A DNA stretch of 37,386 bases, from contig JAVKIP010000025.1 of NCBI GenBank assembly GCA_031459385.1, forward strand, positions 1 to 37,386, read 5' to 3'. Positions 5,554 through 23,904 of the stretch are shown piece by piece (the first letter of the stretch is position 1; each line of letters begins with the position of its first letter). The position numbers and the translations under genes were made by a program. Source of the stretch: Candidatus Fervidifonticultor secundus (GTDB lineage: Bacteria; Sysuimicrobiota; Sysuimicrobiia; Sysuimicrobiales; Humicultoraceae). The notes under the pieces were generated by a model that worked only from the letters and a program-made list of their open reading frames with translations, did not search any database and was not told the DNA's origin.

Positions 5554-5577
5554 CTCCCTCACCCCCGTTCGAAGGAC

Positions 5578-5606
5578 ATGCTAACAGGATATTTACAGGA
5601 TGTCAA
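5578..5606 (-). promoter_or_regulatory. sigma70-type promoter TTGACA-N17-TAGCAT
   Basis: -35 at 5606-5601 and -10 at 5583-5578, in an AT-rich intergenic gap. Confidence 0.75.
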
Positions 5607-5609
5607 TAC

Positions 5610-5623
5610 CGAACATGTGTTCG
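5610..5623. promoter_or_regulatory. LexA (Cheo/SOS) box CGAAC-ATGT-GTTCG
   Basis: Perfect match to the Gram-positive-type CGAAC-N4-GTTCG box, 3 bp upstream of the -35 element. Confidence 0.75.
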
Positions 5624-5651
5624 AGGCAAAAGGGCACCCCCGGGATGCGCT

Positions 5652-7559: not shown

Positions 7560-7592
7560 GTCGCCTCACTCCACCGGACTGTGTCTGCTGAC

Positions 7593-7820
7593 TTACCGGT
7601 ACGTTGTCCATTCAACCGTCACGGGCCCGCACCACACCGACCGCGTGTTCAGCGCGCGGTCTGTCCCCACGCCGCGCCAGGACAGCGGGTGGACCAAGAC
7701 GTCCAAGCTGCACAGCGGCGCCAGCGTCACGCCCACCGTCAGCACGGGCTGCAGGGCCCGCCACCACCGCCACAACCTGATGCGCCATGCCAGCTGACAG
7801 GCCGCCCGCAGCCGCTTCAC
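7593..7820 (-). CDS. hypothetical protein
   Basis: GTGA overlap with the upstream stop. Confidence 0.5.
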   Translation of the reverse strand: MKRLRAACQLAWRIRLWRWWRALQPVLTVGVTLAPLCSLDVLVHPLSWRGVGTDRALNTRSVWCGPVTVEWTTYR

Positions 7821-8710
7821 CAGTCATCGCCTCCCGCCGATTCGTCGTCGCCCACATGACCCGCCGACCCTGCGGTGTCCACGTACCATGCCGGCCGTCC
7901 TCGTTCGACGATCCGGCGTGCCGTCGGCCAGCACCGCCGGGTATACGAACAATACGCGCACTGCACGGGCAGCCGCTGGCGGCCGTCGGGGCATGTCGTC
8001 GGACGGTGCGCACGGTCGGGTAACAGGTCGGGCGTGCTGTCGCGCACCTGCGCGGCGCGCGCAAAGGCCTGCTCGACCAGGGCGTCGTCATACGGCAAGA
8101 CCCATTCCCCGAGCTCGCCCGTCAGGCCGCGCAGCGCCACTAGCACCGTGGCGCGTACGTCGATGCCCGCCTCGCGCCACGCCGCCACCTCCAGGCTGGC
8201 CTGCGTGCGGTATCCCCAGGTGTCGTCGGGGCCGCCATCGCGCTTGGCCTGGTCGTAAGACGCTTCGGCCATCTTCTTGACCTCGACGTTGTACCAGGCG
8301 CCGCCAACGTGCAGCACGGCGTCGGGCCAGCAGCCGAACGACAACCCGTTGCGGCTGACCCGCATGCGCTCGGTGTCCAGCAGCAGTTCGTCGGGGGCGG
8401 CCAGGTCGCAGCCAGCCGCCTTCGCCAGGGCGAGCACGGCAAGTTCGGCGATGTCCCCTACGTAATAGTTCAGCACTGCCCGCGCCGGCAGCGGCGCGTC
8501 CGGGGCGACCCCGTGGTATTTGTACGCAGCTCGCCGCGCGCACCGCTGGGTCACCAACGTCGCATACAGGCGGCCCGTCATGTCTCGGTCCGGCCCCATG
8601 CGGCGACGTAGACCGTCAGTAAATCGGCGGGTCGCCCATTGCAGCACGGTCTCGTCGGGCTGGGCGCGCCTGCTGTTGTCCAGATAGTCCCGGATTCTGT
8701 CGGCGATCAT
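7817..8710 (-). CDS. Cas4-like PD-(D/E)xK exonuclease
   Basis: CARRAAY...WPDAV...NVEVKK...YRTQ...CAYCSYTRRCW (Fe-S cysteines); start MIADRIR is coupled to the HNH stop. Confidence 0.8.
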   Translation of the reverse strand: MIADRIRDYLDNSRRAQPDETVLQWATRRFTDGLRRRMGPDRDMTGRLYATLVTQRCARRAAYKYHGVAPDAPLPARAVLNYYVGDIAELAVLALAKAAGCDLAAPDELLLDTERMRVSRNGLSFGCWPDAVLHVGGAWYNVEVKKMAEASYDQAKRDGGPDDTWGYRTQASLEVAAWREAGIDVRATVLVALRGLTGELGEWVLPYDDALVEQAFARAAQVRDSTPDLLPDRAHRPTTCPDGRQRLPVQCAYCSYTRRCWPTARRIVERGRPAWYVDTAGSAGHVGDDESAGGDDW

Positions 8711-9057
8711 GGCTGCTGGCGCCTGCGGCGCTGTGCCGTCAGCTGTGCGTGACACCACGCACAGACCGCCTGCAGGTTGTGTGAGTCGTGGGTGCCTCCG
8801 TCTGCCAGGGCGACAATGTGGTGGACCTGGGTGGCTGGCCTGCGCCTGCACCGGACGCATATGGGCGACCGACGCAACGTCTCTGCCCGAATGCGCGGCC
8901 AGGTGGCGTCGTACCCGCGCTCGGGCGCGGGCGGCCGCCGCGCCTCCGCTTCCTGGCGGACCCTGCGCGCATGCAGCGGGCAGTACCGGCCGTCCCGGAC
9001 GATGACCGGGCATCCCGGCCACCCGCACGGACGAGACCACACCCTACGACGCCCCAC
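8707..9057 (-). CDS. HNH endonuclease (HK97 gp74-like)
   Basis: RPCGWPGC...YCPLH...RGYDATW...CVRC...VHHIVALADGGTHDSHNLQAVCAWCH. Confidence 0.85.
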   Translation of the reverse strand: MGRRRVWSRPCGWPGCPVIVRDGRYCPLHARRVRQEAEARRPPAPERGYDATWPRIRAETLRRSPICVRCRRRPATQVHHIVALADGGTHDSHNLQAVCAWCHAQLTAQRRRRQQP

Positions 9058-9334
9058 GGTCAGCGCCCTGCTGTTCAGCAATTCGCTCGCCCTGCTGTTC
9101 AGCAATTCGCTCGCCCAGCCAGTCCAATACGGTCAGACCCAGCATCTGGGCCAGCGTCAGCCCGCACAGGCTAGCCAGGCTGTCAATCAGTGCCCACGCC
9201 CCACCAGGCAAGGTCACGACGACGCGTCTGCTTTGACGGTCGCCTCTTGCGCCCGCCAGAACGCGAGGCGCGCGGCGGCGGCGGTAGCCAGTCCGGCGGA
9301 ATCGCGCCGGGCGGCCACCGCGAGGGTCTCCCAT
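9044..9334 (-). CDS. possible ribbon-helix-helix protein (start uncertain)
   Basis: RRVVVTLPGGAWALIDSLASLCGLTLAQML resembles CopG/RHH; overlaps the upstream ORF. Confidence 0.35.
   Translation of the reverse strand: MGDPRGGRPARFRRTGYRRRRAPRVLAGARGDRQSRRVVVTLPGGAWALIDSLASLCGLTLAQMLGLTVLDWLGERIAEQQGERIAEQQGADRGAS
9064..9116. repeat. 24-bp tandem duplication CGCCCTGCTGTTCAGCAATTCGCT
   Basis: Exact copies at 9064-9087 and 9088-9111 (encodes GERIAEQQ twice). Confidence 0.9.
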
Positions 9335-9494
9335 CCAGCACCCCCAGCTTGTCTATGCGGTGATACCACGCGCGAATGGTGGCCCACGACCAGCCTTCTG
9401 CCCGCAAGGCCATGGCCTGTTCGACACGCGTCATCCGACGGGCCCGGTCCCACACGGCCGCGAATGCCTCGCGCGGGGTCGGCGGGCGGCTCAT
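9183..9494 (-). CDS. hypothetical protein
   Basis: MSRPPTPREAF... with an ATGA overlap to the NinG-like gene. Confidence 0.5.
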   Translation of the reverse strand: MSRPPTPREAFAAVWDRARRMTRVEQAMALRAEGWSWATIRAWYHRIDKLGVLDGRPSRWPPGAIPPDWLPPPPRASRSGGRKRRPSKQTRRRDLAWWGVGTD

Positions 9495-9796
9495 CGTACA
9501 CCCCGCGCCATCGCCATCAGCCGGGCCCACCTGTCCGGCCCCAGCCGCGCGCGCATCAGGTTTGTGAACTCGGTCTGCTTGCGGGCGTCCAAATATTGGT
9601 GGCACCCGTAGCACAGCGAAATACAGTTGTCAGGATCCTGCCGGAGCGCGCGGACCGACCGACCCACAAAGTGCGCACAGTGCAAGCCGCGGCTGCCGGG
9701 GGCAAACTGGCGGCCGCAGCGCTGACACGTCCATCGGTCGCGTTCGCGCACCAGTCGCGACAGCTCTCGGTCAGCAGCGGTGCGCCGGATTTTCAT
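9491..9796 (-). CDS. NinG/Rap-like recombination endonuclease
   Basis: ADRELSRLVRERD..CQRC...HCAHFVGRS..ALR.DPDNCISLCYGCH. Confidence 0.8.
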   Translation of the reverse strand: MKIRRTAADRELSRLVRERDRWTCQRCGRQFAPGSRGLHCAHFVGRSVRALRQDPDNCISLCYGCHQYLDARKQTEFTNLMRARLGPDRWARLMAMARGVR

Positions 9797-9935
9797 CGAG
9801 CCGTTCACACGCGCCGCCGCAGCGGCGGCACCGCACGCCGATAATCGTGTGGATGACCGCCACCTCCGATGCGACGGCACCGCAGGCGCGGCAGACATAG
9901 TCGGGCCACACGCGCGGCGCGGGTGGTGCAGTCAT
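9771..9935 (-). CDS. small zinc-ribbon protein
   Basis: YVCRACG...VRCRRCGG; coupled start. Confidence 0.55.
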   Translation of the reverse strand: MTAPPAPRVWPDYVCRACGAVASEVAVIHTIIGVRCRRCGGACERLDENPAHRC

Positions 9936-10174
9936 GGATGGGCGCCCGGAGCGTACCGGGCGCGCAGGGCGGCTGCCCATATCGGAGCGAACACCTCCGG
10001 ATGCTGGAGCTGGTAGCTGACGCCGATGGCGCGCAGGTGCTCGCACGTCACCCGCCACCGCCACCGCCGTAACTCCGTCCACCAGTCGGGGACGACGCGG
10101 CGGGCCGGCGTCCACCAATCATCGGGCCATTCCTGTGCGAAAATGTACCACCATGCCCAGGTCTGACTGTTCAC
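9932..10174 (-). CDS. hypothetical Trp-rich protein
   Basis: 80-aa ORF with coupled start and stop. Confidence 0.55.
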   Translation of the reverse strand: MNSQTWAWWYIFAQEWPDDWWTPARRVVPDWWTELRRWRWRVTCEHLRAIGVSYQLQHPEVFAPIWAAALRARYAPGAHP

Positions 10175-10401
10175 GGTCTCTCACCCCCGGACAGCACGCG
10201 GCGCAACACGTCGCGCAGCCGCGTGCGCCGCGGCCGCGACATATGCACTGCCAGAGCCTGCTCCCACAAGTAATAGCCCGCGCCCTCGTCGACGAAAACT
10301 GGCCGCAGCAGGCGCCGGCGATGGGCCCAGTACCTCCAGGTGCACAGCGGCCGGCCCGTCAGGCGCGCGATCTCGGCTAGCGTGAAGACGACCTGTTCCA
10401 T
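10171..10401 (-). CDS. HTH DNA-binding protein (excisionase/MerR-like)
   Basis: VFTLAEIARLTGRPLCTWRYWAHRRRL. Confidence 0.6.
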   Translation of the reverse strand: MEQVVFTLAEIARLTGRPLCTWRYWAHRRRLLRPVFVDEGAGYYLWEQALAVHMSRPRRTRLRDVLRRVLSGGERP

Positions 10402-10907
10402 TTGCGCACCAGCTGCTGGGCAGCGGGCATGTACGGCCGGTGGCGGCCCCGGCGGTAGGCGGTCCACGGCGACCACCCTCTGGAGGCGTACAGCGTGCGC
10501 GCAAACCGCGAAGAGCAGTGATACTGCTGGGCGCACGCGACCGAAATGGGGTGGACCGCGATGTTGATCTGCAGGGGGCCGACTGACACTTCGCCGGCGC
10601 CGCGGTGGACGGCGTCGCGCCGGCAGCCGGACTCGGCGGCCGCGATGGCAACGAGGGTAGGCCAGGTATGGTCAGGCCATCCCGTGTGGACCGCCGATTC
10701 CACGACGAGCTCACACCCCGGCCGACCCGTAATGGGGTCAACCCACGCGGGCAGGCGCGCGGGCAGACGCGCAGCGGCATGCCCCGGGACAGGCCAGCAG
10801 GCCACGACGGCGGCCAGCACACAGCCTGCCACGCGGTAGCCCACCGCGCCTCCCACGTTGGCACGTTCGTAACACGTCGGGGCCGACATGTCAATACCGA
10901 ACATCAA
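10377..10907 (-). CDS. secreted lytic transglycosylase (SLT/lysozyme-like)
   Basis: Signal-like N-terminus; AIAAAESG...GPLQIN...GWSPWTAY. Confidence 0.8.
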   Translation of the reverse strand: MMFGIDMSAPTCYERANVGGAVGYRVAGCVLAAVVACWPVPGHAAARLPARLPAWVDPITGRPGCELVVESAVHTGWPDHTWPTLVAIAAAESGCRRDAVHRGAGEVSVGPLQINIAVHPISVACAQQYHCSSRFARTLYASRGWSPWTAYRRGRHRPYMPAAQQLVRKWNRSSSR

Positions 10908-11254
10908 GGGTCTTCCGCGCCAAACAGCCAGGCATCCAGCAGCCTGGCCGCCACCTCTGCGCGCAGGGCCCGCGACTCATACAGCGCCAGCTCCCACCGA
11001 TACACGCGATCGTGACGGTCGCGGTGGTCCTGGCAGCGCAGGTGCAGGTAAGCGTGGATGAGTTCGTGGATGGCCGTCTGGATGACCTCCCGCGCGCCCC
11101 CGGTGTGCCCGGCGCGCCCGACGACGACCACCTCGCCGTCGTAGTACCCCAGCACGTCCATGCCGTCCACGCGCGCCCGGTCCACCACCCGCACGCGCGT
11201 ATGGCGCAGCAGCTCACGCAGTTGGGCGACTGTCGGGGGCGTCGGGCGCGGCAT
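10904..11254 (-). CDS. small HExxH zincin-like metallopeptidase
   Basis: VLGYYDG...QTAIHELIHAYLH; start MPRPTP. Confidence 0.7.
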   Translation of the reverse strand: MPRPTPPTVAQLRELLRHTRVRVVDRARVDGMDVLGYYDGEVVVVGRAGHTGGAREVIQTAIHELIHAYLHLRCQDHRDRHDRVYRWELALYESRALRAEVAARLLDAWLFGAEDP

Positions 11255-11660
11255 CGCTACTGGACGGGATGGCAACAAGCTCGGGCTGGCGCGCCCATTC
11301 CTCGCGCGCCCGCGTGAGGTCGTACCCGATATCCACGTGGACCGGGTCGCGCTGCATGAAGCGGCCGCCCCAGCGCAGGCCCATCTGCTCGGCCAGCAGG
11401 CCCGCCTCGTCGCGCTCAGCGCCGCTGGCAGCGGCGTAGTCGACCGCGAGCCCGTAGTTATGCAGCGACCGGCCCGGGGGCGCCGCGGGCAGGCCCGTCC
11501 GCCCGCGGCGCAACCACCGCAGGTACAACGCGCGCTGGGTTTCCATGTCGCGATACGATGACACGATCCAGACGCGCAGCCCCTCGTCGCGGCACCGGCG
11601 CAGCCAGGCAATGACGCGCGGGGCGAATGCGGGATGACACCGATGGATGTCGCCAGGCAC
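11214..11660 (-). CDS. endolysin, peptidase M15 family
   Basis: SSYRDMETQRALY...AAPPGRSLHNYGLAVD...WGGRF..RDPVHVD. Confidence 0.85.
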   Translation of the reverse strand: MPGDIHRCHPAFAPRVIAWLRRCRDEGLRVWIVSSYRDMETQRALYLRWLRRGRTGLPAAPPGRSLHNYGLAVDYAAASGAERDEAGLLAEQMGLRWGGRFMQRDPVHVDIGYDLTRAREEWARQPELVAIPSSSDAAPDAPDSRPTA

Positions 11661-11683
11661 GGTGCGCCCCCGGGGTCGGGATC

Positions 11684-11860
11684 CTACCCCTGCCGTGCGC
11701 CTGCGTACCGGTTCCACAGGGCCACTGCCACCAGCGCCACAATGGTCCGGTACGGCTCGTCCAGAGGCACGTGTGCGTACGCCGCCACGACGTACGCGAC
11801 GGCTGCGGTCAGCGCGGCTTTCAGCGCGCCGGCAGCCGTCGTGCGCAGCCAGTCTCCCAT
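11684..11860 (-). CDS. putative holin
   Basis: 58 aa with two hydrophobic segments, directly upstream of the endolysin. Confidence 0.55.
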   Translation of the reverse strand: MGDWLRTTAAGALKAALTAAVAYVVAAYAHVPLDEPYRTIVALVAVALWNRYAGARQG

Positions 11861-11879
11861 GTCAGGCCACCCCCTTTCG

Positions 11880-12191
11880 TTACAGAATGGGCCGACCCAG
11901 TAGTCGAGACACAAAGTGCAGCCACAGCCACGTCACCCACCCCGCGACGACCCACCGTGGGACCTCGGCTACCAGCGCCGCCGTCAGCGTCGGTGTGCGC
12001 GGGTCAGCGTCCAGCGCCGCGGCGACGTCTAGGCCCAGCGTGACGACGACCAGAGCATAAAAGATGCTGACGACCACGCGGTTCCACACAGAGTAGTCCA
12101 CGGGAGGCGCCGGCGCCCCCCGCAGCTGTGCTATGACGGCAACCGCCGCGACCAGCGCGCACCCGCCCACCTGCCACCATGCGTCCTTCAT
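11880..12191 (-). CDS. membrane protein (about 3 TM)
   Basis: MKDAWWQVGG... with three hydrophobic stretches. Confidence 0.6.
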   Translation of the reverse strand: MKDAWWQVGGCALVAAVAVIAQLRGAPAPPVDYSVWNRVVVSIFYALVVVTLGLDVAAALDADPRTPTLTAALVAEVPRWVVAGWVTWLWLHFVSRLLGRPIL

Positions 12192-12198
12192 GGGCCGA

Positions 12199-12630
12199 TC
12201 ACCCACGCTGTGCCAACTGTTTTCGGAATTCCTGACGCTCCCAATACCGCAGCACAGCGACCGCCGCCCGGTCAAACGACGCCCGGCCCACCGGGATCAC
12301 CGCGCGCAGCAGGGCGCGGGCTGACGCCCCCTGCACGCAGACGTGGACGCGCGGCCGCCACGACTGCCGCAGCCGGTACCGCCTGCCGCGCGAGTACGAC
12401 CATCGCCGGCGCGCCCGGGTCCGCACGACGCAGTACCGCAGCCCCGCCGCGTCCAGCAGCTCGCACAGCGGCTGTGGCCGCACCTCCACCAGCGTGAAGG
12501 CCACGTATGCCACCAGCCCGCCACGCACGACCTGGCGGCGGATCGCCCCGTATCGGTAGGCCCACCGGGCTAGCTGCCCGGCCAGACCTCCACACGCACC
12601 TGCGGGATCCGGGTATGCAGCCACGCGCAC
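12199..12630 (-). CDS. hypothetical basic protein (start uncertain)
   Basis: Fills the gap between the flanking genes on the coding strand. Confidence 0.45.
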   Translation of the reverse strand: MRVAAYPDPAGACGGLAGQLARWAYRYGAIRRQVVRGGLVAYVAFTLVEVRPQPLCELLDAAGLRYCVVRTRARRRWSYSRGRRYRLRQSWRPRVHVCVQGASARALLRAVIPVGRASFDRAAVAVLRYWERQEFRKQLAQRG

Positions 12631-13349
12631 ACAGACCCGACCTGGCCCTCAGGGCCCAGTTTGCGCCGGACGGCATAGTCCGGGCCCCGCAGGTAATGGC
12701 CACAGCGCAGCCACCACACCGGGCGCGACCCGTCGGGGGTCTGCACGTTCACCAACAACGCCGCTAGCTGGTGGGAGTGCCCCAGCGCGTATATGTCCAC
12801 GCCGTGCCGGTCCATGGCCAGCCGCCCGTGGGCCGTGAACGGGTTGACGATCGGGCCCTCGCCGTGGTAGACATACACCACATATCGCAGCCGGTCGGAT
12901 ATCCGGTACACCACGTACCCAGGCCGAAATAGCGGCACGACGGGCCGGTGGGGCAGGCCCGCCTGCTGGCGGACTGCCAGGATCCGGTCCACGACCGACT
13001 CCGTGTAGTCCAGCCCCGCCCGTGCGTAGACGCGCAGCTCGTGGTTCCCGGGATGCAGAACATCCACCGCCAGGCCCGCCATCAGCTCGGCGAACATCTG
13101 GCGCTGGGGCTCGGGCGGGATCTGCTGGCTCCACAGCGCGCCGGATCGCGTCACCCTATCCGTGGCCCCCACCTGCTCGGGGCCGTCCCCCAGATGGATG
13201 ACGCGCGCACCCAGCTGGCGCGCCCGCTCGACATGGGCCAACAGCGACTCCAGATCGCATCTGTCGTGGCCCAGGTGCCAATCCCCCGTCAGCCAGACGG
13301 GGACCTCGTCGGTGCCCGTGTCAACGTCAAACGTGACGACGGGATCCAT
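12570..13349 (-). CDS. calcineurin-like metallophosphoesterase
   Basis: GDWHLG, HLGD, GNHE, HG and GHSH motifs. Confidence 0.85.
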   Translation of the reverse strand: MDPVVTFDVDTGTDEVPVWLTGDWHLGHDRCDLESLLAHVERARQLGARVIHLGDGPEQVGATDRVTRSGALWSQQIPPEPQRQMFAELMAGLAVDVLHPGNHELRVYARAGLDYTESVVDRILAVRQQAGLPHRPVVPLFRPGYVVYRISDRLRYVVYVYHGEGPIVNPFTAHGRLAMDRHGVDIYALGHSHQLAALLVNVQTPDGSRPVWWLRCGHYLRGPDYAVRRKLGPEGQVGSVCAWLHTRIPQVRVEVWPGS

Positions 13350-13352
13350 GCT

Positions 13353-13955
13353 TTATGGGCGCGGACGGAAGACGATCATCCCCACGACCCGGCCCGATTC
13401 CACCACCAGGACCACGCCCCGGGACATGTAGGCCAGCAGGGAGTGAGTCACCCACCCGTCGTCGTCCCAGAAGACGATGGCCTGCGGCGCTCCGACCATG
13501 CGGACAGCATCGGCGACCGCAGTGCCCAGGCGGACGACGCCACCCGTGTCCAGATCCCACCGTGACGGACGCAGGCATTGCACGGCCTCCACGGTCCCCG
13601 CGGCGGGGTCGCTGAACAGGATGCTCAGCATCCCGCGCGGGTCAATTTCCCGGCGCATCCCCCCGTATGGCGTACGGACCTGCCTGGTGCGCCCGTACAC
13701 CCACCATCGACCGTACCCGCCCAGTAGTTGCGGCGGGCCCAGGCGCGCGTACACGGCCGCGGGCGTTTCACCTACCGCCACGCCGCACGCGCGCTGGCCG
13801 GGGATGACGACGTATTCGTCCTGCCCGACAGGCGGGTCCATAGCGGCGCCGCGCTGCCACGGTCGCACCCCGTAGGCCCGGGCGCCGTATGCGACCGCAA
13901 CGCCCAGCCCCACTACGGTCACGGCGGCCAACAGCCGTCTCACCCAGACGCTCAT
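13353..13955 (-). CDS. secreted or membrane-anchored protein with two similar domains
   Basis: N-terminal TM/signal; GVAVGETPAAVYARLGPP and GVVRLGTAVADAVRMVGAP are internal repeats; strong SD GGAGGGGGAGG. Confidence 0.7.
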   Translation of the reverse strand: MSVWVRRLLAAVTVVGLGVAVAYGARAYGVRPWQRGAAMDPPVGQDEYVVIPGQRACGVAVGETPAAVYARLGPPQLLGGYGRWWVYGRTRQVRTPYGGMRREIDPRGMLSILFSDPAAGTVEAVQCLRPSRWDLDTGGVVRLGTAVADAVRMVGAPQAIVFWDDDGWVTHSLLAYMSRGVVLVVESGRVVGMIVFRPRP

Positions 13956-15640
13956 GTGTTGTCCTCCCCCTCCTCCTCGTGGTGCGTGGGACCGTCCACG
14001 CGCTTGGGGCGCTGCGGGTTGGGCAGCGCCTCGCGCGGGCGGTCACCCCACAGCTGCACCAGCTCGTCATGCGTAACCTCGTCGTCAACCACCAGGCGCT
14101 GCACCAGGGCCCAGTGCAGCGCCTTGTACCGCTGCAGTAGCCGTCCGGCCTGGGACAGCGCCTCGTCGAACAGATAGCGGGTCAGCTGCGCACGCTGCGC
14201 AGCGGTCCAGGCGGGGCTGCCCCACAGCCCCCAGTCCAGTAGTTCCCGGCACCGGTCCATCATGGCGGGGTAGTCACCGCCGACGCTGCGCAGCGGCTCA
14301 CCATAGACCATGATTTCCGCAGCCCTGCCCCCCGCCGAGATCACTGTGTCCACCCACAATTCATTGAGCGAGCGCACGACCCGCTGCCTGGTCTCCTTGG
14401 ACAGCGTGTGCCCCAGGGCGTCGCCATACCGCACCACGGTCACCGACGAAATGCGATGGTCGGTCAACACCCATTGCAAGACGGCATGTCCGGCCTCGTG
14501 GACGGCGATGCGTTCTCGCTCGAGGGGGTCGACTTCGGAAATCGGATTGCGCAGGCCCACCTGCACCTCGTGCAGCGCCTGCAGCAGGTGGCGCATGTGC
14601 ACGCAGTCCGCCCCCTCGAACACGGCCACCCGCGGGGCCTCTTCGGTGACCAGGACTTTGATGTCGGCGGGGCTGACGTCAGACAGCTCGTCCACCAGTG
14701 TGTCGACGTCCACGTCGGGGGCCGCGCGGATCCGTCGCAGGTATCCCGCGACGATTTCGCGCCGCCCCGCACGGTCGGGCAGATCCACCTTGATCTGTCG
14801 GCTCAGGCGCCCGGCCCGCAGTAGCGCCGGGTCCAGCACGCCCGGAATGTTGGTGCTCCCGAACACGACCACGTGCCAGTCGGGCGGGGGTAGCGGAATG
14901 CCTAACCACCCGCATACACGCCGGCACCAGCGCTCGACGAAAAACGTATCGGCAGAGCCGTCGAGCTCGTGCAGCAGCGTGCTGAGCAGCATGGACCCGC
15001 CGCCCCCCATACCACCGACCAGCATGGCCCGCATGGACGTGCGCCGTCCGTCGGACGGGACTGCGCGCGCGGCACCGATGGCGTCGATCTCGTCCAGATA
15101 CAGCGCGCACGAGCCGTAAGCCATGGCCAGCTTTTTCGCCAGGCGGAACGTCAGAATGACGTTGAGGTTGCCGATACCGAACCACGCGCTGGACAGGCTG
15201 GACGCGTCCAGGTAAATGAACGGGATCTGCGCGCTGCCGGCGATGCACCGCGCCAGCCATGTTTTACCGGACCCCGGCGGGCCATACAGCAGCCACCCGC
15301 GCGGGGGTATGCCGCCCATCGCCCTAAACTCCCGATGGCCGCGGATGACCGTGACCCACTGCCGTGCTAGTTCCACCAGGCGCGGCTGCCCCCAGTAGTC
15401 GCGCTCCAGCGTGGGCAGGCCCGCCTGCCCCGGCAAAAAAACCTCGCGCCGCGGACGAGCCATAAAGTACACGAAGCCGAAAATTTGTCCGCCGGTCCAG
15501 AAGACGATGAACGCCGCGTAAAACGCGTACATCAGGACCGTCTGGCGGGCAAATTCGTTCGTGGCCCACAGGTGCCACAGCACAGCCAGGGCGATCCCGC
15601 CCCACAACCAGCGTCCCGCACGCCTGTACCAGCGCCTCAT
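13952..15640 (-). CDS. ftsH: FtsH-like membrane AAA+ zinc metalloprotease (M41)
   Basis: Two N-terminal TMs, Walker A GPPGSGKT, Walker B LYLDEID, SRH STN...LDPALLRAGR, HEAGH, GGRAAE, GGD; start MRRWYRR at 15640. Confidence 0.9.
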   Translation of the reverse strand: MRRWYRRAGRWLWGGIALAVLWHLWATNEFARQTVLMYAFYAAFIVFWTGGQIFGFVYFMARPRREVFLPGQAGLPTLERDYWGQPRLVELARQWVTVIRGHREFRAMGGIPPRGWLLYGPPGSGKTWLARCIAGSAQIPFIYLDASSLSSAWFGIGNLNVILTFRLAKKLAMAYGSCALYLDEIDAIGAARAVPSDGRRTSMRAMLVGGMGGGGSMLLSTLLHELDGSADTFFVERWCRRVCGWLGIPLPPPDWHVVVFGSTNIPGVLDPALLRAGRLSRQIKVDLPDRAGRREIVAGYLRRIRAAPDVDVDTLVDELSDVSPADIKVLVTEEAPRVAVFEGADCVHMRHLLQALHEVQVGLRNPISEVDPLERERIAVHEAGHAVLQWVLTDHRISSVTVVRYGDALGHTLSKETRQRVVRSLNELWVDTVISAGGRAAEIMVYGEPLRSVGGDYPAMMDRCRELLDWGLWGSPAWTAAQRAQLTRYLFDEALSQAGRLLQRYKALHWALVQRLVVDDEVTHDELVQLWGDRPREALPNPQRPKRVDGPTHHEEEGEDNT

Positions 15641-16089
15641 GGCTGTCTTTTCCCCAGCTGGCGGTGTTCGTCTACAGGATCGGGGGCGGGCCGCGGCGGC
15701 ACAGGCGCCGGACGCGCTGGCCCGGCGGCAGCCTGCCATGCGGTACGCTCGACCGCCGCGGCCACGACCCGCGCCAGCGGCTGCACCACGTCGGGCCCGA
15801 CGAACAGCCACAGCACGACGGCAATCTCCACCAGCCCCGCGGTGGGACGAGCGATCCCGAACGTGTCGGCCACCTCAGCCCAGGCGCGGCCCCGCCACGC
15901 GAACAGATCCACGAGCGCCCCCGCGATGACGGCGACGCGCGCCAGCGCATACGGCAGCGAGCTCGTGGACGCCAGGTAGCTCGCATACGCGGAGCGCCAC
16001 TCGGCCAGCGCGCGCTCGCGCTGGTTGGCATCCGGGACGTATCGGGTTAAAATCGCCAGCAGTGTGTCCAGTAGCGGCTGCGGGATCAT
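15637..16089 (-). CDS. membrane protein, possibly 3TM-holin-like
   Basis: LLDTLLAILTRYVPDANQRERALAE followed by two hydrophobic segments. Confidence 0.55.
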   Translation of the reverse strand: MIPQPLLDTLLAILTRYVPDANQRERALAEWRSAYASYLASTSSLPYALARVAVIAGALVDLFAWRGRAWAEVADTFGIARPTAGLVEIAVVLWLFVGPDVVQPLARVVAAAVERTAWQAAAGPARPAPVPPRPAPDPVDEHRQLGKRQP

Positions 16090-16352
16090 CGGCGCATCAG
16101 GGCGCTGAGGTCATGGGCTCCCATGGCGGCCAGGGCCAGTAGCGTCGCGTTCGCCGCCACCTGCACCCCCCCCCAGGGCGCGGCCAGGCCCGCTGAGCCC
16201 AGAAAATCCAGCCGGTACCACCACACCAGCGCCGCCGACAGCAGCCACGCCAGCGCCTTGGCCGCACGGGGCGGGGCCGCAGGCCACAGCACGGCTTTGC
16301 ACATTTCCACCATCGCAAACACCAGCGGGGCCGCGACGGCCAGCGCGCTCAT
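16086..16352 (-). CDS. putative holin
   Basis: 88 aa, about 3 TMs, MVEMCKA...ALAAMGAHD pattern. Confidence 0.6.
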   Translation of the reverse strand: MSALAVAAPLVFAMVEMCKAVLWPAAPPRAAKALAWLLSAALVWWYRLDFLGSAGLAAPWGGVQVAANATLLALAAMGAHDLSALMRR

Positions 16353-16693
16353 TGGACGCCTCCAGATCCGGTCGGCAGCCGCGGGGCGGGCAGGCCCTCG
16401 ATGGCGGCGGCGGTGTCCGGGTCAACGCGGCGCAGGATGCCCAGCAGCGCCGCCGCCACCTGACCCTGGCGGTGGGCTTCTTCCGCGCGGGCGGCGTCCA
16501 GCGTCGCGATGGTCCGGATCTGTTCGGACACGCCCTGTGCCTGGATGTACACGTTCAACACAAACGCGCAGGACTCCACCGCGTCCTGCTGACGGTCGTA
16601 GTGCACCCAGAACATGCACTCGTGGCGAATGCACGGCCGCCGCAGCAGCGGACAGGTGCGCCGCTCGGGCGGCAGTAGCGTCACAGGGTGCAC
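16349..16693 (-). CDS. Cys-rich tail-region protein
   Basis: TCPLLRRPCIRHECMFW...CAF followed by a coiled coil; follows the tail fibre genes. Confidence 0.6.
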   Translation of the reverse strand: MHPVTLLPPERRTCPLLRRPCIRHECMFWVHYDRQQDAVESCAFVLNVYIQAQGVSEQIRTIATLDAARAEEAHRQGQVAAALLGILRRVDPDTAAAIEGLPAPRLPTGSGGVQ

Positions 16694-16695
16694 GT

Positions 16696-16950
16696 TCAGG
16701 CCCCCCACCCGATCGCCGTCGCGCCGAACTTGCTGGCCAGATCGTCCAGGCGTTGACGCACCGGCCCGGAGCCCAAAAATGTCTGGACTGTCTGCCACGC
16801 CGCGTCCGACAGGGCCACCGAAAAGTGCACCGTCCCCTGAACACTACCAGCCGCGTCGCGCAGTATGGCGGTCAGCAGCACCGCCTTGTCGTTGGCCGAA
16901 AATGTCACCGACAACACGCGCAGCTCCACCCGTATCCCCTCCCCTGTCAT
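16696..16950 (-). CDS. hypothetical tail-region protein
   Basis: 84-aa ORF coupled to the fibre gene stop. Confidence 0.6.
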   Translation of the reverse strand: MTGEGIRVELRVLSVTFSANDKAVLLTAILRDAAGSVQGTVHFSVALSDAAWQTVQTFLGSGPVRQRLDDLASKFGATAIGWGA

Positions 16951-18020
16951 GCCCTGGCCGCGACAATGGCGTCAATGACGGGCGGCCGCCAGGTGCCATC
17001 ACCGGTCACCGTTGCCGTAGCCGCGGAAATGGACTGCCCGCGCGGGTTGGCGGGCGCATCAGACATCCTGTTGCCCGTCGTCACCCCGTGCGCGTGGGAG
17101 GCGACGGACAGGCCGCTGATGGTCCAGCTGCCGCCTTGGGGGCCGCGCGAGCCCGCCACCAGCCGCACCATGCGGTCGGCGACGCTGGTGTCCTGCACCC
17201 ACCCCGCAGGGGCGGCTGCCTGCACGAACACGGTCCGCGAGCCCGCGGGGGCGATCGTGTTCAGGTGGCGCGCCCGCAAAATGGCCCCCGCGGCATCGGG
17301 TTCCGTGCGCGCGCACACAATGGCGTCGCGATACGCAGGCCGCCATGTCCCGTTACTGGACACGGCGGGCGAGGCACTCGCTGTCGGGCTGGACACGATG
17401 ACGACCTGGTAGGGCAGGGCGGTCTGGTCGGTGGTGTTCGCCGGCCCCGTGATGCCGTGGCTGTGGGCGTACGACAGCCCCGTGATCGTCCAGCTGCCCG
17501 CGTCGGCCCCGCGGGCACCGGAGACAATGCGTACCAAGATGTCGTCCCGGGCCGTGTCGCGCGTCCAGCCCGCGGGGGCGACGTCCTGGTCCCAGATCAT
17601 GCGTGACGTGGACGGGATGACCCGGTTCAGCGCAGCTGTCGTGAGCACGTCAGACGACGTCCAGTCGGGGTCGGTGCGCTGGCACAGGATGACGTCGTGG
17701 TATCGCGGCCGCCAGGTGCCGTCCGACGTGACGCCCTGGCTTGGTGCGGCCGTGGCCGTGAATGCGGTCTGGGCGCCGGTGTTGACAGTGACAGTCGGCA
17801 CCCCGTGCGTGTGGGAAGCCGACAGCCCCGTGATCGTCCAGCTGCCCCCTGTGCCTCCTCCGGCGCCCGAGACAATGCGCACCAGCCTGTCGGCGACCGT
17901 CGTGTTGCGTGTCCAGCCCGCGGGGGCGGCATCCTGGTCGAACACCGTCGTGCTCCCCGACGGCATGATCGTGTTCAGGTCCGCGGCCAGAACCGGCTGG
18001 CGGACCGTCCAGTCCGGCAT
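16947..18020 (-). CDS. tail fibre/collar-like protein with three ~120-aa repeats
   Basis: Three copies of LN.I.P.....F.Q..APAGW....DR.VRIVSG...GSWTI.GLS..H.HG...GTWRP...D.I. Confidence 0.75.
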   Translation of the reverse strand: MPDWTVRQPVLAADLNTIMPSGSTTVFDQDAAPAGWTRNTTVADRLVRIVSGAGGGTGGSWTITGLSASHTHGVPTVTVNTGAQTAFTATAAPSQGVTSDGTWRPRYHDVILCQRTDPDWTSSDVLTTAALNRVIPSTSRMIWDQDVAPAGWTRDTARDDILVRIVSGARGADAGSWTITGLSYAHSHGITGPANTTDQTALPYQVVIVSSPTASASPAVSSNGTWRPAYRDAIVCARTEPDAAGAILRARHLNTIAPAGSRTVFVQAAAPAGWVQDTSVADRMVRLVAGSRGPQGGSWTISGLSVASHAHGVTTGNRMSDAPANPRGQSISAATATVTGDGTWRPPVIDAIVAARA

Positions 18021-18027
18021 GGCCCCA

Positions 18028-20067
18028 CTACCACGCGGCCCGGCGCGTGCCGTTCAGCACGCCGCGGGTCGCATCGCCGTAGACCAGCCACGGATTGCCC
18101 GTTGACAGCACGGCGCGGATCTCCACGGTATGCTCCCAGCCGCGCTCGGCGTTGATGTCGTGGTCGATGGCGACGACCTCGAACACGCTGTTCACGCGCG
18201 ACAGCGAGTGCACCACCGACACCAGGTGGCGGTCGAAGCTGATGTCCAGGATCTCGGGCAGCGCATTCTTGACCGACGCCTCCAGGATCGGAGTGGGGTG
18301 GGCGCGGGCCGACAGCATGTATTGGGCGTAGTCCTGCGCATACAGCGCGTCGCCGATGAAGTCGTTGGCGAGCGTCTGCTCGTACCGCCCGTACAGGCTG
18401 CGGCTGTAGTCGTCCACGGCGTCTACGGAGATTTCCGACCGCCGGTGCAGTGGGTACCCGCGGGCCTGCAGTTTCACGAGCGCCACCTGGTCTCCGGACC
18501 CGTTGAACAGCGTCACCACCACCGACACCCCGCCCGCGGTCACCCGCGCGCTTGCTGTCCCCGTCCGGTCCAGCCCCGTGCCGTCCGGCGACGTGTTCAG
18601 TAGCCAGTCTGCCGAGCGCACCACACTGACGCTGGTGGCCGGCGTCAGCCGTTCACCCGTTATCGGGTCAACGTATGCCAGCTCGACCCCCAGGTAGCCG
18701 CTGGCGGGAATGGTCGGCGGCGAGCCCACATACGTTGCCACCACCTGCGCCGACCCGGCCACCTGACGGGGGCGCGCCTCAATGCGCATGCGGTTGAGCA
18801 GCATCCGGGTGTCGTAGGAAATGGACCACGTCCAGTATCGGGACAGCGTGAACACGGCGGCGCTGAGAACCGACCAGTACCTGTCACGGACAACAATCTG
18901 GCTGGGCTGCAAATCCACATGTGATTGAGGCCGCGAGTACAGCACGGCCCCTCCATAGCGCATCAGCTCCTGAATGGCCGCCAGCGCCGGCTCGTCCCGA
19001 AACCACGCGTACGGGACGACCTCTGCCATGCTGTCGACGGCAACTGTAGCGCCGGACAGACTGGCCGCGCTGAGCACGCCCAGAAATGCGGAGCGGATAT
19101 TGGTGGACACCATCATCGGCGGTGAGACCCTGCGGACCTGCAGGTCGCGCAGCCCGTCGGCAGCGACGATGTGCGCTGTCTGGCGCGACCACGCCGGGCT
19201 GAGCGCCCACTGCTCAATGACGCTCCGGGCAATCCTGCGTGTGCTACCGGCGTAGGTGGCCTGCACCAGTATCTCGTCGCCCAGGGCAGCGCGGCTGTAT
19301 CGGCCGTCGCGGTTGTCCAAGACCACGTCGACGCGACCCGGCCGCGGGCTGTCCAGTGGGCCGAACAGCTCGGAGGAAATGGCCACCCGCAGGGTATCGC
19401 TCGTCAGGCCACGGAAACTCGTCCAAGCATGTACAATGCCCGTCCCCACCACGACCCCGTGTTTGCCCGACGGACTGCGGTCATATACCGTAGTCCCCTC
19501 GGCCTCGTTTATCGGCCAATACGCCACCAGGTCAGCCTCGTCGCCGCGCAGGCGACCGTACCGGTCCCTGGCAATGCGGTCGGCGGACAGCGCGACACGC
19601 CATATGCGCGCCTCGCCTATCACTGCGATATTTGGGTAATTGACGATGCCACTGGTCGGGGTCGCCGCCGCCAGATACACCGGCCCGGACGCCGTGGACA
19701 GCGGGCCGCCAACCGTCCGGGTGCCCACAAGCGCCCCGTCCAGATAGCCCGCCAGCGTCGTGCCGTCATAGGTCATAGCCATGTGATACATGGTGCTACT
19801 GCTTAGTGCGGGCCCTGTAATGTCATACCATACGCCGCCAACGTTGACGGCCGGCCGAAACACCTGCACGCTGTTCGTACACACGGTGAGCATCCAGGCA
19901 TCTGGGCGCGCGGCGGGAACCACGGACTCGAGTGGGCCGCCGGGCATGGAGTACCACACTTCGACCGTAATTGCTGACGTCAGCCCGTCCCCCGAGTCGA
20001 CCCGCACGTAGCCGCCATAGACCCGCAACATCAGCCTGCGCTGCACGACGCCGTAGGTCACAGACAT
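18028..20067 (-). CDS. minor tail/hub protein with N-terminal LamG (ConA-like) domain
   Basis: YHMAMTYDGTTLAGYLDG...EARIWRVALS...LVAYWPINEAEGTTVYD; LDNRDGRYS tail-hub motif; follows the tape measure gene. Confidence 0.75.
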   Translation of the reverse strand: MSVTYGVVQRRLMLRVYGGYVRVDSGDGLTSAITVEVWYSMPGGPLESVVPAARPDAWMLTVCTNSVQVFRPAVNVGGVWYDITGPALSSSTMYHMAMTYDGTTLAGYLDGALVGTRTVGGPLSTASGPVYLAAATPTSGIVNYPNIAVIGEARIWRVALSADRIARDRYGRLRGDEADLVAYWPINEAEGTTVYDRSPSGKHGVVVGTGIVHAWTSFRGLTSDTLRVAISSELFGPLDSPRPGRVDVVLDNRDGRYSRAALGDEILVQATYAGSTRRIARSVIEQWALSPAWSRQTAHIVAADGLRDLQVRRVSPPMMVSTNIRSAFLGVLSAASLSGATVAVDSMAEVVPYAWFRDEPALAAIQELMRYGGAVLYSRPQSHVDLQPSQIVVRDRYWSVLSAAVFTLSRYWTWSISYDTRMLLNRMRIEARPRQVAGSAQVVATYVGSPPTIPASGYLGVELAYVDPITGERLTPATSVSVVRSADWLLNTSPDGTGLDRTGTASARVTAGGVSVVVTLFNGSGDQVALVKLQARGYPLHRRSEISVDAVDDYSRSLYGRYEQTLANDFIGDALYAQDYAQYMLSARAHPTPILEASVKNALPEILDISFDRHLVSVVHSLSRVNSVFEVVAIDHDINAERGWEHTVEIRAVLSTGNPWLVYGDATRGVLNGTRRAAW

Positions 20068-20082
20068 ACTGTCACCGCCGCG

Positions 20083-22092
20083 TCACCGCCGGATCAGGCC
20101 GTAGCGCCTTTCGAAGCGCGCCCACGTGATTTCGTCCGCCAATAGCGGCCCGAACACATTGATCACGGGGCCGCCAGCCGGGCGGCGGTCACCCGCTGCA
20201 GCCAGCGGCTGGACAGTCACCCGCTCCGGACCGCGCTCGCCGACGACCAACCCCGTCGGGCGGGTGGCCAGGATTTCTCCGCCCGACTGGAACGCCACCA
20301 CGCGCCCCCCACCCCCACCGCCACCGCCACCGGCATCGGCGGGCTGCGTCAGCGCACTGATCAGGTCGGCCCACCACCGCTCGCGCTCAACAGTGGGCAA
20401 AGCCGCGACCGGAGCCGCCACCGCAATCGGCTGCGGAGCGGCCGCCGTCGCGACCACGCGCGCTCCGGGCAGTGTCGGACCGCCCAGCGGGGCAGCCACC
20501 CATGTATCCATGCGCGCGGCGGCCAGCACCGGCAGGGCCACGCGCTGCAGCTGCGTGGCGGCTCCGGCGGTCAGCGGCCCGGGCTCGCTGACCACAGCCA
20601 CGAGCGGGCGCGCGGCGGTGGCCAGCACGGGCTGCACGATGACCCGCTCGGGTCGGGCCTGCCCCACGACCAGCGGTGTCGGACGGGTCGCCACGATGAT
20701 CCGCGCGGGACCGCCAGCCAGCGGCTGGACAGTCACCCGCTCCGGACCGCGCTCGCCGACCATGATGCGCGTCGGGCGGGTCGCGATGAGCTGGCCGCCG
20801 GTCTGCAGGTGTATGCCCAGCAGCCCGAAGATGAACGAGACGGCCTGCATGGCCAGGCGCACCAACCCGATCTGCTCGATGATCTGCTCGACGGCCTTGC
20901 GCCAGATCGCCGCCCACAGGTCGGCAAACGTCGCCGTCCCGGTCAGGATGCCTACCAGCGTGTCGGAGACGGTGCGCCGGACGGAATCGGCAAATTCCCG
21001 CTGCTTGCGCTCCATCTCGTCCATCTGCGCGACGAGGTCATCGAGTTCGCGCGCGATACTCTGAATCATGTCGTTCCACAGCTGGGTCTTCATGGAAACG
21101 TCGTCGGTGCTCTGGGCCGCCGACCGAATGGTCAGGCCGTACGCGCGCGTCGCCTCAGACGCCTGCCGGTTGCCCTCGGTGATGCGCGCCAATAGTTGCT
21201 GGTACTCCACCCACGCCGGCGAGCGCAAGAAGGCCCGCTCGGCTTCGGACGCCACGCCCTCATAGGCCTTGCCGGCGGCGACCAGACTGGCAATGTGCGC
21301 CGCGAACGCCCGCTCGCGTTCGGCGGCCGCCCGCTGCAGGGCCTCCCGCTCGCGCTGCAGTGCCTCCTGACGCCGCTGGGCCGCCCGGGCCTCCTCATCG
21401 GCCAGCCGCTGCAGGGCCTGGGCGGCGAGCAGCTGGCCGCGGGCGAAGTCAGCTGCGGACAGCTGGCCCTCGCGCTGCGCATGGCGGAGCTGTTCAGAGG
21501 CCGCCGCCGAGCGGGACGCCATGGCCGCATATGCGGCCTGCGCCTCGGCGGCCCGGTGCGCCGCCTCCGCCTTCTGGCGCATCACCGCCACGACGGCACC
21601 CCCGACGGCCACAAGCGCACCCAGCGCGGCGACCGCAATGCCCACCGGCCCCGACAACAGCCGTACGGCGTTGGTCAGCAACACCGTCGTACCGGCGGCC
21701 AGCTGGGCCGCATTGCGGTACAGTGACAGCCCCGCACTGACCAGCGTGAGGTTGACCGTCAGCTTTTCGAGCTTGTCTTGCAGGTCCTGATTGCCGCGTG
21801 CGAAAATGCTTAAAATCGCCGCCGTGCCCTGCAGCGTCTGCGACAGGTCTCGCACGCTGGCCAAAAACGCGCGCTGTTCGGTGGTGAGGTTGCGCACCGA
21901 GCGCCCCGCGCGGTCGGCGGCGTGCTGGGCGCGCTCGTATGCCTGCCGGGACTGCTCGGACGCCCGCTGGACATGCTCGGACGCCTGTTGAACGTCACTG
22001 CCGAATTTGCGTGCGGCGGCGGCTGCTTGCTCAAAGCCGGCGGCGGCTTCGGGGGCGCCGCTGAGGACAATGCGAATGCCGACCTCAGCCAT
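20083..22092 (-). CDS. tape measure protein
   Basis: Ala-rich helical protein, C-terminal GG...RPT...VGERGPERV motif, downstream of the tail chaperones. Confidence 0.8.
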   Translation of the reverse strand: MAEVGIRIVLSGAPEAAAGFEQAAAAARKFGSDVQQASEHVQRASEQSRQAYERAQHAADRAGRSVRNLTTEQRAFLASVRDLSQTLQGTAAILSIFARGNQDLQDKLEKLTVNLTLVSAGLSLYRNAAQLAAGTTVLLTNAVRLLSGPVGIAVAALGALVAVGGAVVAVMRQKAEAAHRAAEAQAAYAAMASRSAAASEQLRHAQREGQLSAADFARGQLLAAQALQRLADEEARAAQRRQEALQREREALQRAAAERERAFAAHIASLVAAGKAYEGVASEAERAFLRSPAWVEYQQLLARITEGNRQASEATRAYGLTIRSAAQSTDDVSMKTQLWNDMIQSIARELDDLVAQMDEMERKQREFADSVRRTVSDTLVGILTGTATFADLWAAIWRKAVEQIIEQIGLVRLAMQAVSFIFGLLGIHLQTGGQLIATRPTRIMVGERGPERVTVQPLAGGPARIIVATRPTPLVVGQARPERVIVQPVLATAARPLVAVVSEPGPLTAGAATQLQRVALPVLAAARMDTWVAAPLGGPTLPGARVVATAAAPQPIAVAAPVAALPTVERERWWADLISALTQPADAGGGGGGGGGRVVAFQSGGEILATRPTGLVVGERGPERVTVQPLAAAGDRRPAGGPVINVFGPLLADEITWARFERRYGLIRR

Positions 22093-22216
22093 GGCGGGCG
22101 GCGCGCATGCGGATCTTGGCGGCCAGGTACGCGGCCTCGTCCAGGCTCAACTGTCCGACCTCGTCAGGTCCCCATCCGTAGGCGGCGGCGAAGGCGTCGA
22201 GCCACTCGCAAAAGGG
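22085..22216 (-). other. -1 programmed frameshift site CCCTTTT (22216-22210) and gpGT-like extension
   Basis: The -1 frame reads CEWLDAFAAAYGWGPDEVGQLSLDEAAYLAAKIRMRAARHG* and ends inside the tape measure start. Confidence 0.8.
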
Positions 22217-22497
22217 TCCGCCCCGCCTATGGCGTCTGCGGTGGCCCGGGCCAGCTGTTCAGCGACCGCGCGGAACTGCTCAGGGGTCAGCGACCACACC
22301 AGCTCTGCGTCAATGCGCGGCTCGATCTTGCGCAGCAGGTAGGTGACGTAGCCGACCTGGTCGTCCAGGTTGTCGGGGTCGGCCAGCTTGCTGACAGTGA
22401 TCCCGGCGCGGCGCATCTCGCGCAGGTCGCGCATGGTCAGCGGCGGCATGCCGGACAGGTCGACGTCGTACGGCCCCACGCGCACGCGCATGGTCAT
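22147..22497 (-). CDS. tail assembly chaperone (gpG-like)
   Basis: Between tail tube and tape measure; contains slippery site C CCT TTT. Confidence 0.75.
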   Translation of the reverse strand: MTMRVRVGPYDVDLSGMPPLTMRDLREMRRAGITVSKLADPDNLDDQVGYVTYLLRKIEPRIDAELVWSLTPEQFRAVAEQLARATADAIGGADPFASGSTPSPPPTDGDLTRSDS

Positions 22498-23456: not shown

Positions 23457-23468
23457 GACGCATTCCTC

Positions 23469-23903: not shown

Positions 23904-23904
23904 C

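Follow-up and report, generated by a model that had tools for sequence, protein, structure and literature searches.

In this study, we analysed a stretch of 37,386 bp (hereafter the window) from the assembly of Candidatus Fervidifonticultor secundus (GCA_031459385.1; 59 contigs, 3.3 Mb), which comprises the whole of contig C18 (JAVKIP010000025.1), and found that the gene at 13952-15640 on its minus strand encodes a membrane-anchored protease of the AAA+/M41 superfamily, 562 aa long, with a full AAA module, an HEXXH motif, and a third zinc ligand. We interpret the contig as a new tailed phage, its genome nearly complete, that entered the bin together with its probable host, and the protease as a member of an FtsH-like clade with a short membrane anchor. 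Judged by its motifs, the enzyme looks active, and we tentatively favour, at just short of an even chance, a stand-alone role in general membrane-protein turnover in the infected cell.

The protein matches the Pfam families AAA (PF00004, E 2.2e-23) and Peptidase_M41 (PF01434, E 3.5e-13; 50.3 bits against a cut-off of 29.9), the latter over profile positions 3-82 of 191 only. Its motifs were read by alignment to the FtsH of the host, one enterobacterial FtsH, and one from Rhodobacter and in a 16-sequence alignment (A1). They comprise Walker A GPPGSGKT (residues 120-127, with K126), an aromatic pore loop W152-F-G, Walker B DEID (residues 183-186, with D183/E184), sensor-1 N264, the arginines R275 and R278 of the second region of homology (SRH), HEAGH (residues 381-385, with H381, E382, and H385), E442, and the third zinc ligand D456, and all of these catalytic and ATPase columns are invariant in 16 of the 16 sequences. 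We take the ATG as the true start because all 16 aligned homologues begin at this position; an alternative GTG start at 15811 would give a protein of 619 aa and would overlap the upstream gene by 170 nt. The AlphaFold2 model built from A1 (predicted local distance difference test, pLDDT, 83.7; predicted template-modelling score, pTM, 0.70) contains a membrane hairpin of two helices (2-25 and 29-61) with a 3-residue loop between them, an AAA domain in which a disordered loop (195-212) leads into two additional helices (214-246), and a complete helical protease domain (372-531); in a crude hydropathy scan, the second membrane helix alone passes the threshold. The best matches of the model in the Protein Data Bank (PDB), as found by Foldseek, are all FtsH, AFG3L2, YME1, or FtsHi chains (3kds_E, E 4.2e-28 and template-modelling score by target 0.76; 6nyy_F, 0.78; 7tdo_A, 0.74; 6az0, 0.72).

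The first-pass annotation of this DNA had described a 562-aa open reading frame (ORF) with two transmembrane helices, Walker A and B, an SRH arginine finger, HEAGH, and an Asp ligand, and the ORF call, the alignment, and the model bear this out. It had also called the product an intact FtsH, which is right for the motif set, which is complete, but not for the family, as the score against the FtsH equivalog model TIGR01241 is 214.7 bits against a cut-off of 600 (NF008004: 149.9 against 1008); nor did Pfam find FtsH_ext in the protease. The host has a canonical FtsH of its own on contig C27, which is 31% identical to the phage protease over residues 253-468, so the phage gene is not a near-identical copy of a chromosomal ftsH paralogue.

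That the gene is encoded by a phage, as first annotated, is equally clear. The structural and lysis genes, including those for the large terminase (TerL), portal, head protease, major head protein, tail tube, and endolysin, all lie on one strand, the strand of the protease gene, with no cellular flank. The G+C content of the contig is 68.4%, against 71.9% for the genome, and its tetranucleotide correlation with the rest of the genome (0.972) is the lowest among the contigs above 20 kb (others at least 0.984). Its terminase is at most 41% identical to any GenBank phage terminase, and no integrase was found in Pfam scans of the contig's proteins, nor any tRNA gene or terminal repeat on the contig. 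The protease gene takes up 1.7 kb, or 4.5%, of this genome, and the G+C content at its third codon positions (0.82) is like that of the neighbouring genes. Because its codon-position G+C is that of the phage and its identity to any relative is at most about 50%, the capture of the gene is old.

A tree was inferred from 72 sequences over 565 columns (LG+G4, quick search in IQ-TREE, root arbitrary; a fragment of 264 aa was left out). In it, the 47 rows with short-anchor features form one clade, joined to canonical FtsH by a branch of 1.29 with a support of 100 in the SH-like approximate likelihood-ratio test (SH-aLRT). The canonical part of the tree holds the host FtsH, the protein of the jumbo phage MIJ3, and a copy from a giant-virus bin (GVMAG). 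Inside the clade, the phage protein and P0002 form a pair (support 96); one step further out, a group with a support of 98 contains P0005, P0008-P0010, and the protein of another phage contig, G061, and the sister group consists of P0004, P0006, and the cellular copy of genome G055, the ten rows together having a support of 100. Of the 8000 candidates scored in a word-indexed protein search, 4015 reached E<=0.001. The nearest relatives are 552-565 aa long and 41-51% identical and form a sub-clade of their own that includes the G061 protein; they are followed, at 33-39% identity, by proteins named 'AAA family ATPase' or 'FtsH' from Thermoflexus, Anaerolineae, and other Chloroflexota, some of them on megabase contigs. 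Named genomes with clade members include metagenome-assembled genomes (MAGs) of Chloroflexota as well as those of Paenibacillus qinlingensis and Sporolactobacillus shoreae. Of 60 genomes from relatives of the host, one has a copy at E<=1e-40 (G055, from the same order, 44% identity); the gene stands there at the end of a contig, with a HAD phosphatase gene and a histidine-biosynthesis operon immediately upstream. Cellular copies adjoin varying housekeeping genes, such as those for spermidine synthase, D-Ala-D-Ala ligase, and tRNA synthetase, and when the ORFs of 19 loci were compared all against all, no family of neighbours recurred in more than three of them. The clade is thus for the most part cellular and lacks a conserved neighbour.

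Two local arrangements were seen among these cellular loci. In an Anaerolineaceae MAG (L089), two short-anchor copies of 617 and 618 aa stand in tandem, 37 nt apart (5889-7742 and 7779-9635), and may form a hetero-oligomer. In Paenibacillus (L090, 4409-4699) and Sporolactobacillus (L092, 7029-7496), a gene for a small membrane protein with three helices precedes the clade member at a short distance (gaps of 92 and 364 nt) and in the same orientation; these two small proteins are hardly similar to one another (E 0.028) and are unlike the small proteins of the phage.

Viral copies were surveyed in 157 IMG/VR loci by two scans, the signature being DYWGQ, Walker A, and HEAGH in one open frame. Four of these loci carry it (L005, L006, L205, and L206), a fifth (L043) was placed in the clade by the tree, and L168, a T4-like contig from metagenome data outside IMG/VR, also carries a clade member. 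The contig that holds L205, G061, is linear, 65.8 kb long, and about 80% complete by CheckV, and belongs to a true phage with genes for small and large terminase, portal, major head protein, adaptor, DNA polymerase, a UvsX-like recombinase, and primase. Its 564-aa protease is 46% identical to the 562-aa protein of the window (tblastn) and is encoded after a tail-fibre gene and three genes of unknown function, and is followed by a gene for a 141-aa lipoprotein-like product; the opposite end of the contig starts with genes for a 259-aa metallophosphoesterase and an endolysin. The 259-aa metallophosphoesterases of the two phages both match phrog_7339 and are not similar by BLAST (E 0.026), and the two contigs have only the protease and a Gp80-like head/fibre gene in common (tblastn). 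The copies in low-G+C, T4-like contigs (L005, 4505-6259; L206, 9807-11561; L168, 591-2348) are 584-585 aa long. In L005 and L206, where it lies in a replication cluster, the protease gene follows a gp45-like clamp gene, and in L005 and L168 a gp44-like clamp-loader gene comes next, while L206 ends at the protease. The contig that holds L006, G064, is 96.7 kb long and 100% complete by CheckV, and its 646-aa copy is encoded after a nucleotide-sugar epimerase. Viral copies stand in at least three separate places of the tree, which fits several independent captures of the clade by unrelated phages.

One further gene of G064 is worth recording, as it overlaps the end of the protease gene (L006, 9695-10240) and encodes a 181-aa membrane-anchored protein with a CKGC (CXXC) motif that is thioredoxin-like by eye. 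Matches in GenBank 'phage' records of Salmonella, Listeria, Staphylococcus, and Microcystis MaAM05 were set aside, since they seem to be cellular sequence or canonical FtsH; in the record named 'Microcystis phage MaAM05' (L286, MW495066.1, 198596-205609), ftsH lies beside proS, lepA, and glgX, and the sequence looks like cellular DNA.

In the window, the protease gene sits between tail genes and lysis genes in a tight co-directional run. A chain of ATGA-overlapping genes around it had been proposed, and direct reading of the four overlaps (16352/16349, 16089/16086, 15640/15637, and 13955/13952) confirmed it. The run begins with a gene for a 149-aa soluble protein without a hydrophobic segment (16349-16798, minus strand, start codon uncertain), which is followed by a gene for a hydrophobic 88-aa protein (16086-16352, minus strand) with ATGA overlaps at both ends. 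The 88-aa protein has one segment above the hydropathy threshold (residues 4-22) and two weaker ones by eye. It had been labelled holin-like; it is hydrophobic, but it matches no family, and no match was found in 50,697 GenBank phage records at E<=1. The label is an interpretation that was not confirmed. The gene directly upstream of the protease gene (15637-16089, minus strand) encodes a 150-aa membrane protein with two helices (hydrophobic segments 45-63 and 79-97) and a proline-rich C-terminal tail. An exhaustive search gave 11 distant relatives of this protein, 132-157 aa long and of the same layout (alignment A3), none of which was found in IMG/VR; a word-indexed search of 5.8 billion proteins found the protein itself alone, and GenBank phage records gave no match. 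A complex prediction of the protease with the 150-aa protein (score 0.00, mark 0.32) is counted neither for nor against binding.

Downstream of the protease gene follows a gene for a 200-aa protein (13353-13955, minus strand) with an N-terminal signal or anchor helix (hydrophobic segment 3-21, helix 3-27, A-R-A motif behind), which is probably exported or anchored. The earlier description of this product as a secreted two-domain protein holds for the N-terminal hydrophobic helix, while two domains were not confirmed, the Atlas model having aligned as one part (44-200), loosely like DUF7738-like folds (template-modelling score 0.55-0.60 by query). The same word-indexed search found the 200-aa protein itself alone, and its single-sequence structure model (pLDDT 49.4) was too poor for a fold search. 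Three nt past the TAA of this gene begins that of a 259-aa calcineurin-like metallophosphoesterase (12570-13349, minus strand; Pfam Metallophos, E 3.8e-05; phrog_7339 'DNA repair exonuclease', E 6.1e-14), and the other neighbours gave no match in Pfam, PHROG, PADLOC, or NCBIfam. Pfam scans showed no SPFH/Band 7 domain in the neighbouring genes, and the protease itself is free of an intein. A promoter scan of 10000-18500 gave no useful minus-strand promoter and few terminator-like sites, all inside genes. By tblastn, the 88-, 150-, and 200-aa genes were found in none of 201 and none of 280 loci searched and nowhere in the 65.8-kb G061, and the protease is the one gene that the phage shares with the other loci, beyond lysin and glycosyltransferase matches at chance level. 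The idea of an undescribed phage module in which FtsH travels with these membrane genes was therefore not upheld, the neighbours being absent from these loci and the other viral copies standing in other contexts.

Since no conserved partner accompanies the protease in cells or in viruses and the viral copies lie in different modules, we favour a stand-alone enzyme of general turnover. The hexamer of FtsH acts on the cytoplasmic face of the membrane, where it extracts and degrades proteins that offer a free tail. By analogy, six copies of the phage protein would form a ring on the cytoplasmic membrane face and would grip the exposed tails of membrane or membrane-near proteins through the W-F-G pore loop; ATP hydrolysis would pull the substrate through, and the HEAGH/Asp zinc site would cut it. 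Such turnover might rid the membrane of host proteins, or of phage membrane proteins made in excess, at the time when the phage is loading it.

Several observations weigh against general turnover. The phage protein stands on a long end branch (0.8) and has an unusual composition, and thus a shifted function is possible. The comparison of neighbours did not include the contexts of its five closest relatives, P0002, P0005, and P0008-P0010, which are 41-50% identical to it and come with longest contigs of 2.7-58 kb. In three of the three phage copies that are not T4-like (the analysed phage, G061, and G064), the product of the next downstream gene has a hydrophobic signal or anchor at its N-terminus, these three products being unrelated to one another. 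The tight ATGA coupling to two small upstream membrane proteins and an exported downstream protein could also mean a specific job. In favour of a working gene, assembled contigs without strand information from three DNA runs and one metatranscriptome run (X4) of one hot-spring study give a weak hint of expression. All three DNA runs contain the stretch and may be where it came from, and the metatranscriptome run contains 32% of the sampled words. Over the range covered (5000-24999), RNA-library contigs without mismatches include 13811-14158 (348 nt), which reaches inside the protease gene, as well as 12721-13097, 11035-11582, 10505-10863, and further places along the phage; this is compatible with transcription of the protease gene, and places without a listed contig carry no information on expression. 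However, these contigs span the whole phage at low depth (about 4 in the RNA library against 140 (X1), 18, and 31 in the DNA runs) and may be DNA carry-over.

The lysis genes have to be considered in some detail, because the alternative that survives best holds that the protease is a lysis clock, which degrades a small membrane protein of the phage (the 150-aa or 88-aa product, or a holin or antiholin near the endolysin) and so sets the triggering of the holin. The endolysin is of the VanY/M15 D-Ala-D-Ala peptidase type (11214-11717, minus strand; VanY, E 1.1e-08; Peptidase_M15_4, E 1e-06; phrog_2649, E 5.2e-15). Directly upstream of it lies a gene for a small membrane protein (11684-11914, minus strand; hydrophobic segment 27-45, a second one by eye), the stop codon of which falls within the first codons of the endolysin ORF, and before that a gene for a small multi-helix membrane protein (11880-12275, minus strand; hydrophobic segments 33-51 and 67-85) with a Trp-rich C-terminal stretch, which gave no match in Pfam, PHROG, PADLOC, or NCBIfam. 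A second muralytic candidate, a lysozyme-like SLT_3 protein, is encoded at 10377-10907 (minus strand; SLT_3, E 2.9e-08), and its N-terminal hydrophobic helix (18-36) resembles that of signal-anchor-release endolysins.

The position of the protease gene between tail genes and lysis cassette, its ATGA coupling to two small membrane proteins, and the proline-rich tail of the 150-aa protein, which, as we read the sequence, a processive protease could grip, all speak for such a clock. In the Atlas, the 150-aa protein also lies near clusters carrying PF11351 GTA_holin_3TM (feature score 0.92, 198 shared features), a weak lead to three-helix holins, but none of the 12 members of the 150-aa family matches PF11351 or a holin PHROG, and neither the 88-aa nor the 150-aa protein matches any GenBank phage record. 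The genes of these two small, hydrophobic proteins lie 3.9-4.6 kb upstream of the endolysin gene with five genes between, and two of these five encode the small membrane proteins that abut the endolysin, which are the more conventional holin candidates. If G061 were circularly permuted, its order of protease, exported protein, phosphoesterase, and endolysin would match that of the analysed phage; however, G061 is linear and about 80% complete, so that its ends adjoin is no more than a guess, and lysis genes are not near the copies in G064 and the T4-like contigs. In the lactococcal phage TP712, release needs the host FtsH and is blocked by its loss, yet the effect was judged to be indirect, via the cell envelope, and the authors ruled out a direct action of FtsH on the lysis proteins. 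As the protease has no partner gene that travels with it, we do not read it as a dedicated lysis clock, an explanation that we consider unlikely. A bolder version would have the ectodomain-less protease, co-translated with the two small membrane proteins, degrade one of them (e.g., the 150-aa protein, via its proline-rich tail) and set the firing of the holins beside the endolysin, in which case the whole clade would consist of dedicated regulators of small membrane proteins that phages borrowed several times; this seems quite improbable to us.

Use against the host deserves the same low credence. The protease might remove membrane-bound defence effectors, the phage receptor (superinfection exclusion), or envelope regulators, and a cytoplasm-facing membrane protease with intact motifs, captured repeatedly by unrelated phages and absent from 59 of the 60 related genomes, would suit such a role, the absence fitting an accessory gene under phage-host conflict. 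Nevertheless, PADLOC matches only generic AAA entries (IetA, TRIP13) and gives no defence-system signal, no anti-defence neighbour was found, and the cellular clade members stand in housekeeping contexts. Finally, it is very unlikely that the gene is a passenger without a role in infection (a recently captured cellular paralogue) or that its product mixes into the host FtsH rings and disturbs them, for although most of the clade is cellular, a copy with 44% identity adjoins the his operon in a bacterium of the same order, and the phage protein has a long branch, its codon-position G+C and distance from any relative speak for the old capture described above, all catalytic residues are kept, and an identity of 31% to host FtsH together with the lack of a periplasmic domain and linker would make mixed rings unlikely.

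Nearly all plausible genes of the window lie on the minus strand. In transcription order, a small-terminase-like ORF comes first, 66 nt from the contig end, followed by the large terminase gene (TerL, 35438-36976, minus strand) and genes for portal, head protease, and major head protein (all by PHROG), then by genes for a cement-like protein and the Gp80-like protein (Pfam). Within this structural block, a gene for a 1243-aa glycosyltransferase/methyltransferase fusion (25055-28786, minus strand) precedes those for a Mu Gp36-like protein and the tail tube (Pfam), after which come those for tape-measure-like and tail-fibre-like proteins (Pfam/PHROG) and then the protease region. The lysis cassette is followed by genes for an HNH protein, a Cas4-type exonuclease, a replication-initiator-like helix-turn-helix protein, and a large DNA methyltransferase; the last is an 845-aa DNA methyltransferase-like protein (phrog_10183, E 4.3e-66), which is preceded by a 147-aa DUF1156 protein, the two being encoded within 2100-5123 (minus strand). 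The 1243-aa protein fuses GT4/GT1 glycosyltransferase, S-adenosylmethionine-dependent methyltransferase, and GT2 domains, and in G061 and G064, too, genes for sugar epimerase, glycosyltransferase, or methyltransferase lie near the FtsH-like gene; these glycan-related genes may serve the modification of virion or envelope glycans.

Some peculiarities of the contig and its probable host were also recorded. In the DNA run X1, the stretch 5150-5400 is covered 4-7 times as deeply as the remainder of the phage, and the DNA contigs break there; it contains a 44-nt, 89% match to host contig C1, and its translation resembles, by eye, a fragment of a transposase or integrase core, while the ORF at 4842-5513 has no Pfam match. 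The host assembly contains no CRISPR array with at least four repeats. A single exact 24-nt match to another host contig was considered as a spacer link and rejected, as its surroundings look like ordinary coding DNA without a repeat array. The host FtsH (contig C27, about 400-3690; loci L002/L003) is one open frame of 1097 aa with a 445-aa insert directly after the pore-loop motif GVGA; the insert starts with SVTGDTPV and ends with HN, followed by Ser, which is the pattern that would be expected of an intein with a homing-endonuclease-like middle part.

In classic phage biology, FtsH is a host factor, as in the cases of lambda CII/CIII and of TP712 release, and to our knowledge FtsH is the only membrane-bound AAA+ protease of bacteria. 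Regulators of the HflK/C type are thought to act through the periplasmic domain of FtsH, which the short-anchor clade lacks. It is now apparent that a small phage, and not jumbo phages alone, invests in an FtsH-like protease of its own. If active, the enzyme would be a compact, probably thermostable, and regulator-free membrane protease, and a handle on how a phage benefits from controlling membrane-protein turnover; if it were tied to lysis, proteolysis would become a further layer of lysis timing. The first-pass annotation had noted that FtsH is not a standard gene of siphoviruses of about 37 kb and may belong to an undescribed phage module, but phage FtsH genes as such are already in the literature. 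Researchers have described one in MIJ3 (2019), with its function stated as unknown, in the jumbo phage PA5oct, where it is transcribed throughout infection, and in the CbK-like siphophage of Erythrobacter vB_EliS-L02, where it is ORF166 and is counted among the auxiliary genes, with a passing reference to lysis; the authors speculate on host maintenance or lysis. Our literature search turned up no description of an ectodomain-less, insert-bearing FtsH-like clade, and this widespread clade, its occurrence in a phage of 37 kb, and its position next to the lysis region are apparently undescribed.

Compared with canonical FtsH (TIGR01241; MEROPS M41; structures 3kds, 2ce7, 7tdo, and 7vhp), the phage protein has the same fold, with an N-in two-helix membrane anchor, one AAA+ module with Walker A/B, aromatic pore loop, and SRH arginines, and an M41 domain with HEAGH and the Asp ligand. 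However, where the host and enterobacterial FtsH have a periplasmic domain of about 75 residues, it has the 3-residue loop, and the linker after helix 2 is short. It also has DYWGQP in place of DVAGxDEAK and two inserts after Walker B (about residues 195-246), which are present in every aligned clade member, and it lacks about 25 residues in the C-terminal half of the protease domain. The paralogues of Chloroflexota (Thermoflexus and Anaerolineae) and Bacillota (Paenibacillus and Sporolactobacillus) belong to the same clade and share the hairpin anchor, the inserts, and DYWGQP, but they are chromosomal and stand in housekeeping neighbourhoods. The FtsH proteins of MIJ3/PA5oct and vB_EliS-L02 are likewise phage-encoded AAA+/M41 proteases, the vB_EliS-L02 protein being compared by description only. 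Unlike the protein studied here, that of MIJ3 has a periplasmic domain and falls among canonical FtsH in the tree, and all of these phages have large genomes (about 288 kb in MIJ3), in contrast to the 37 kb of the phage described here.

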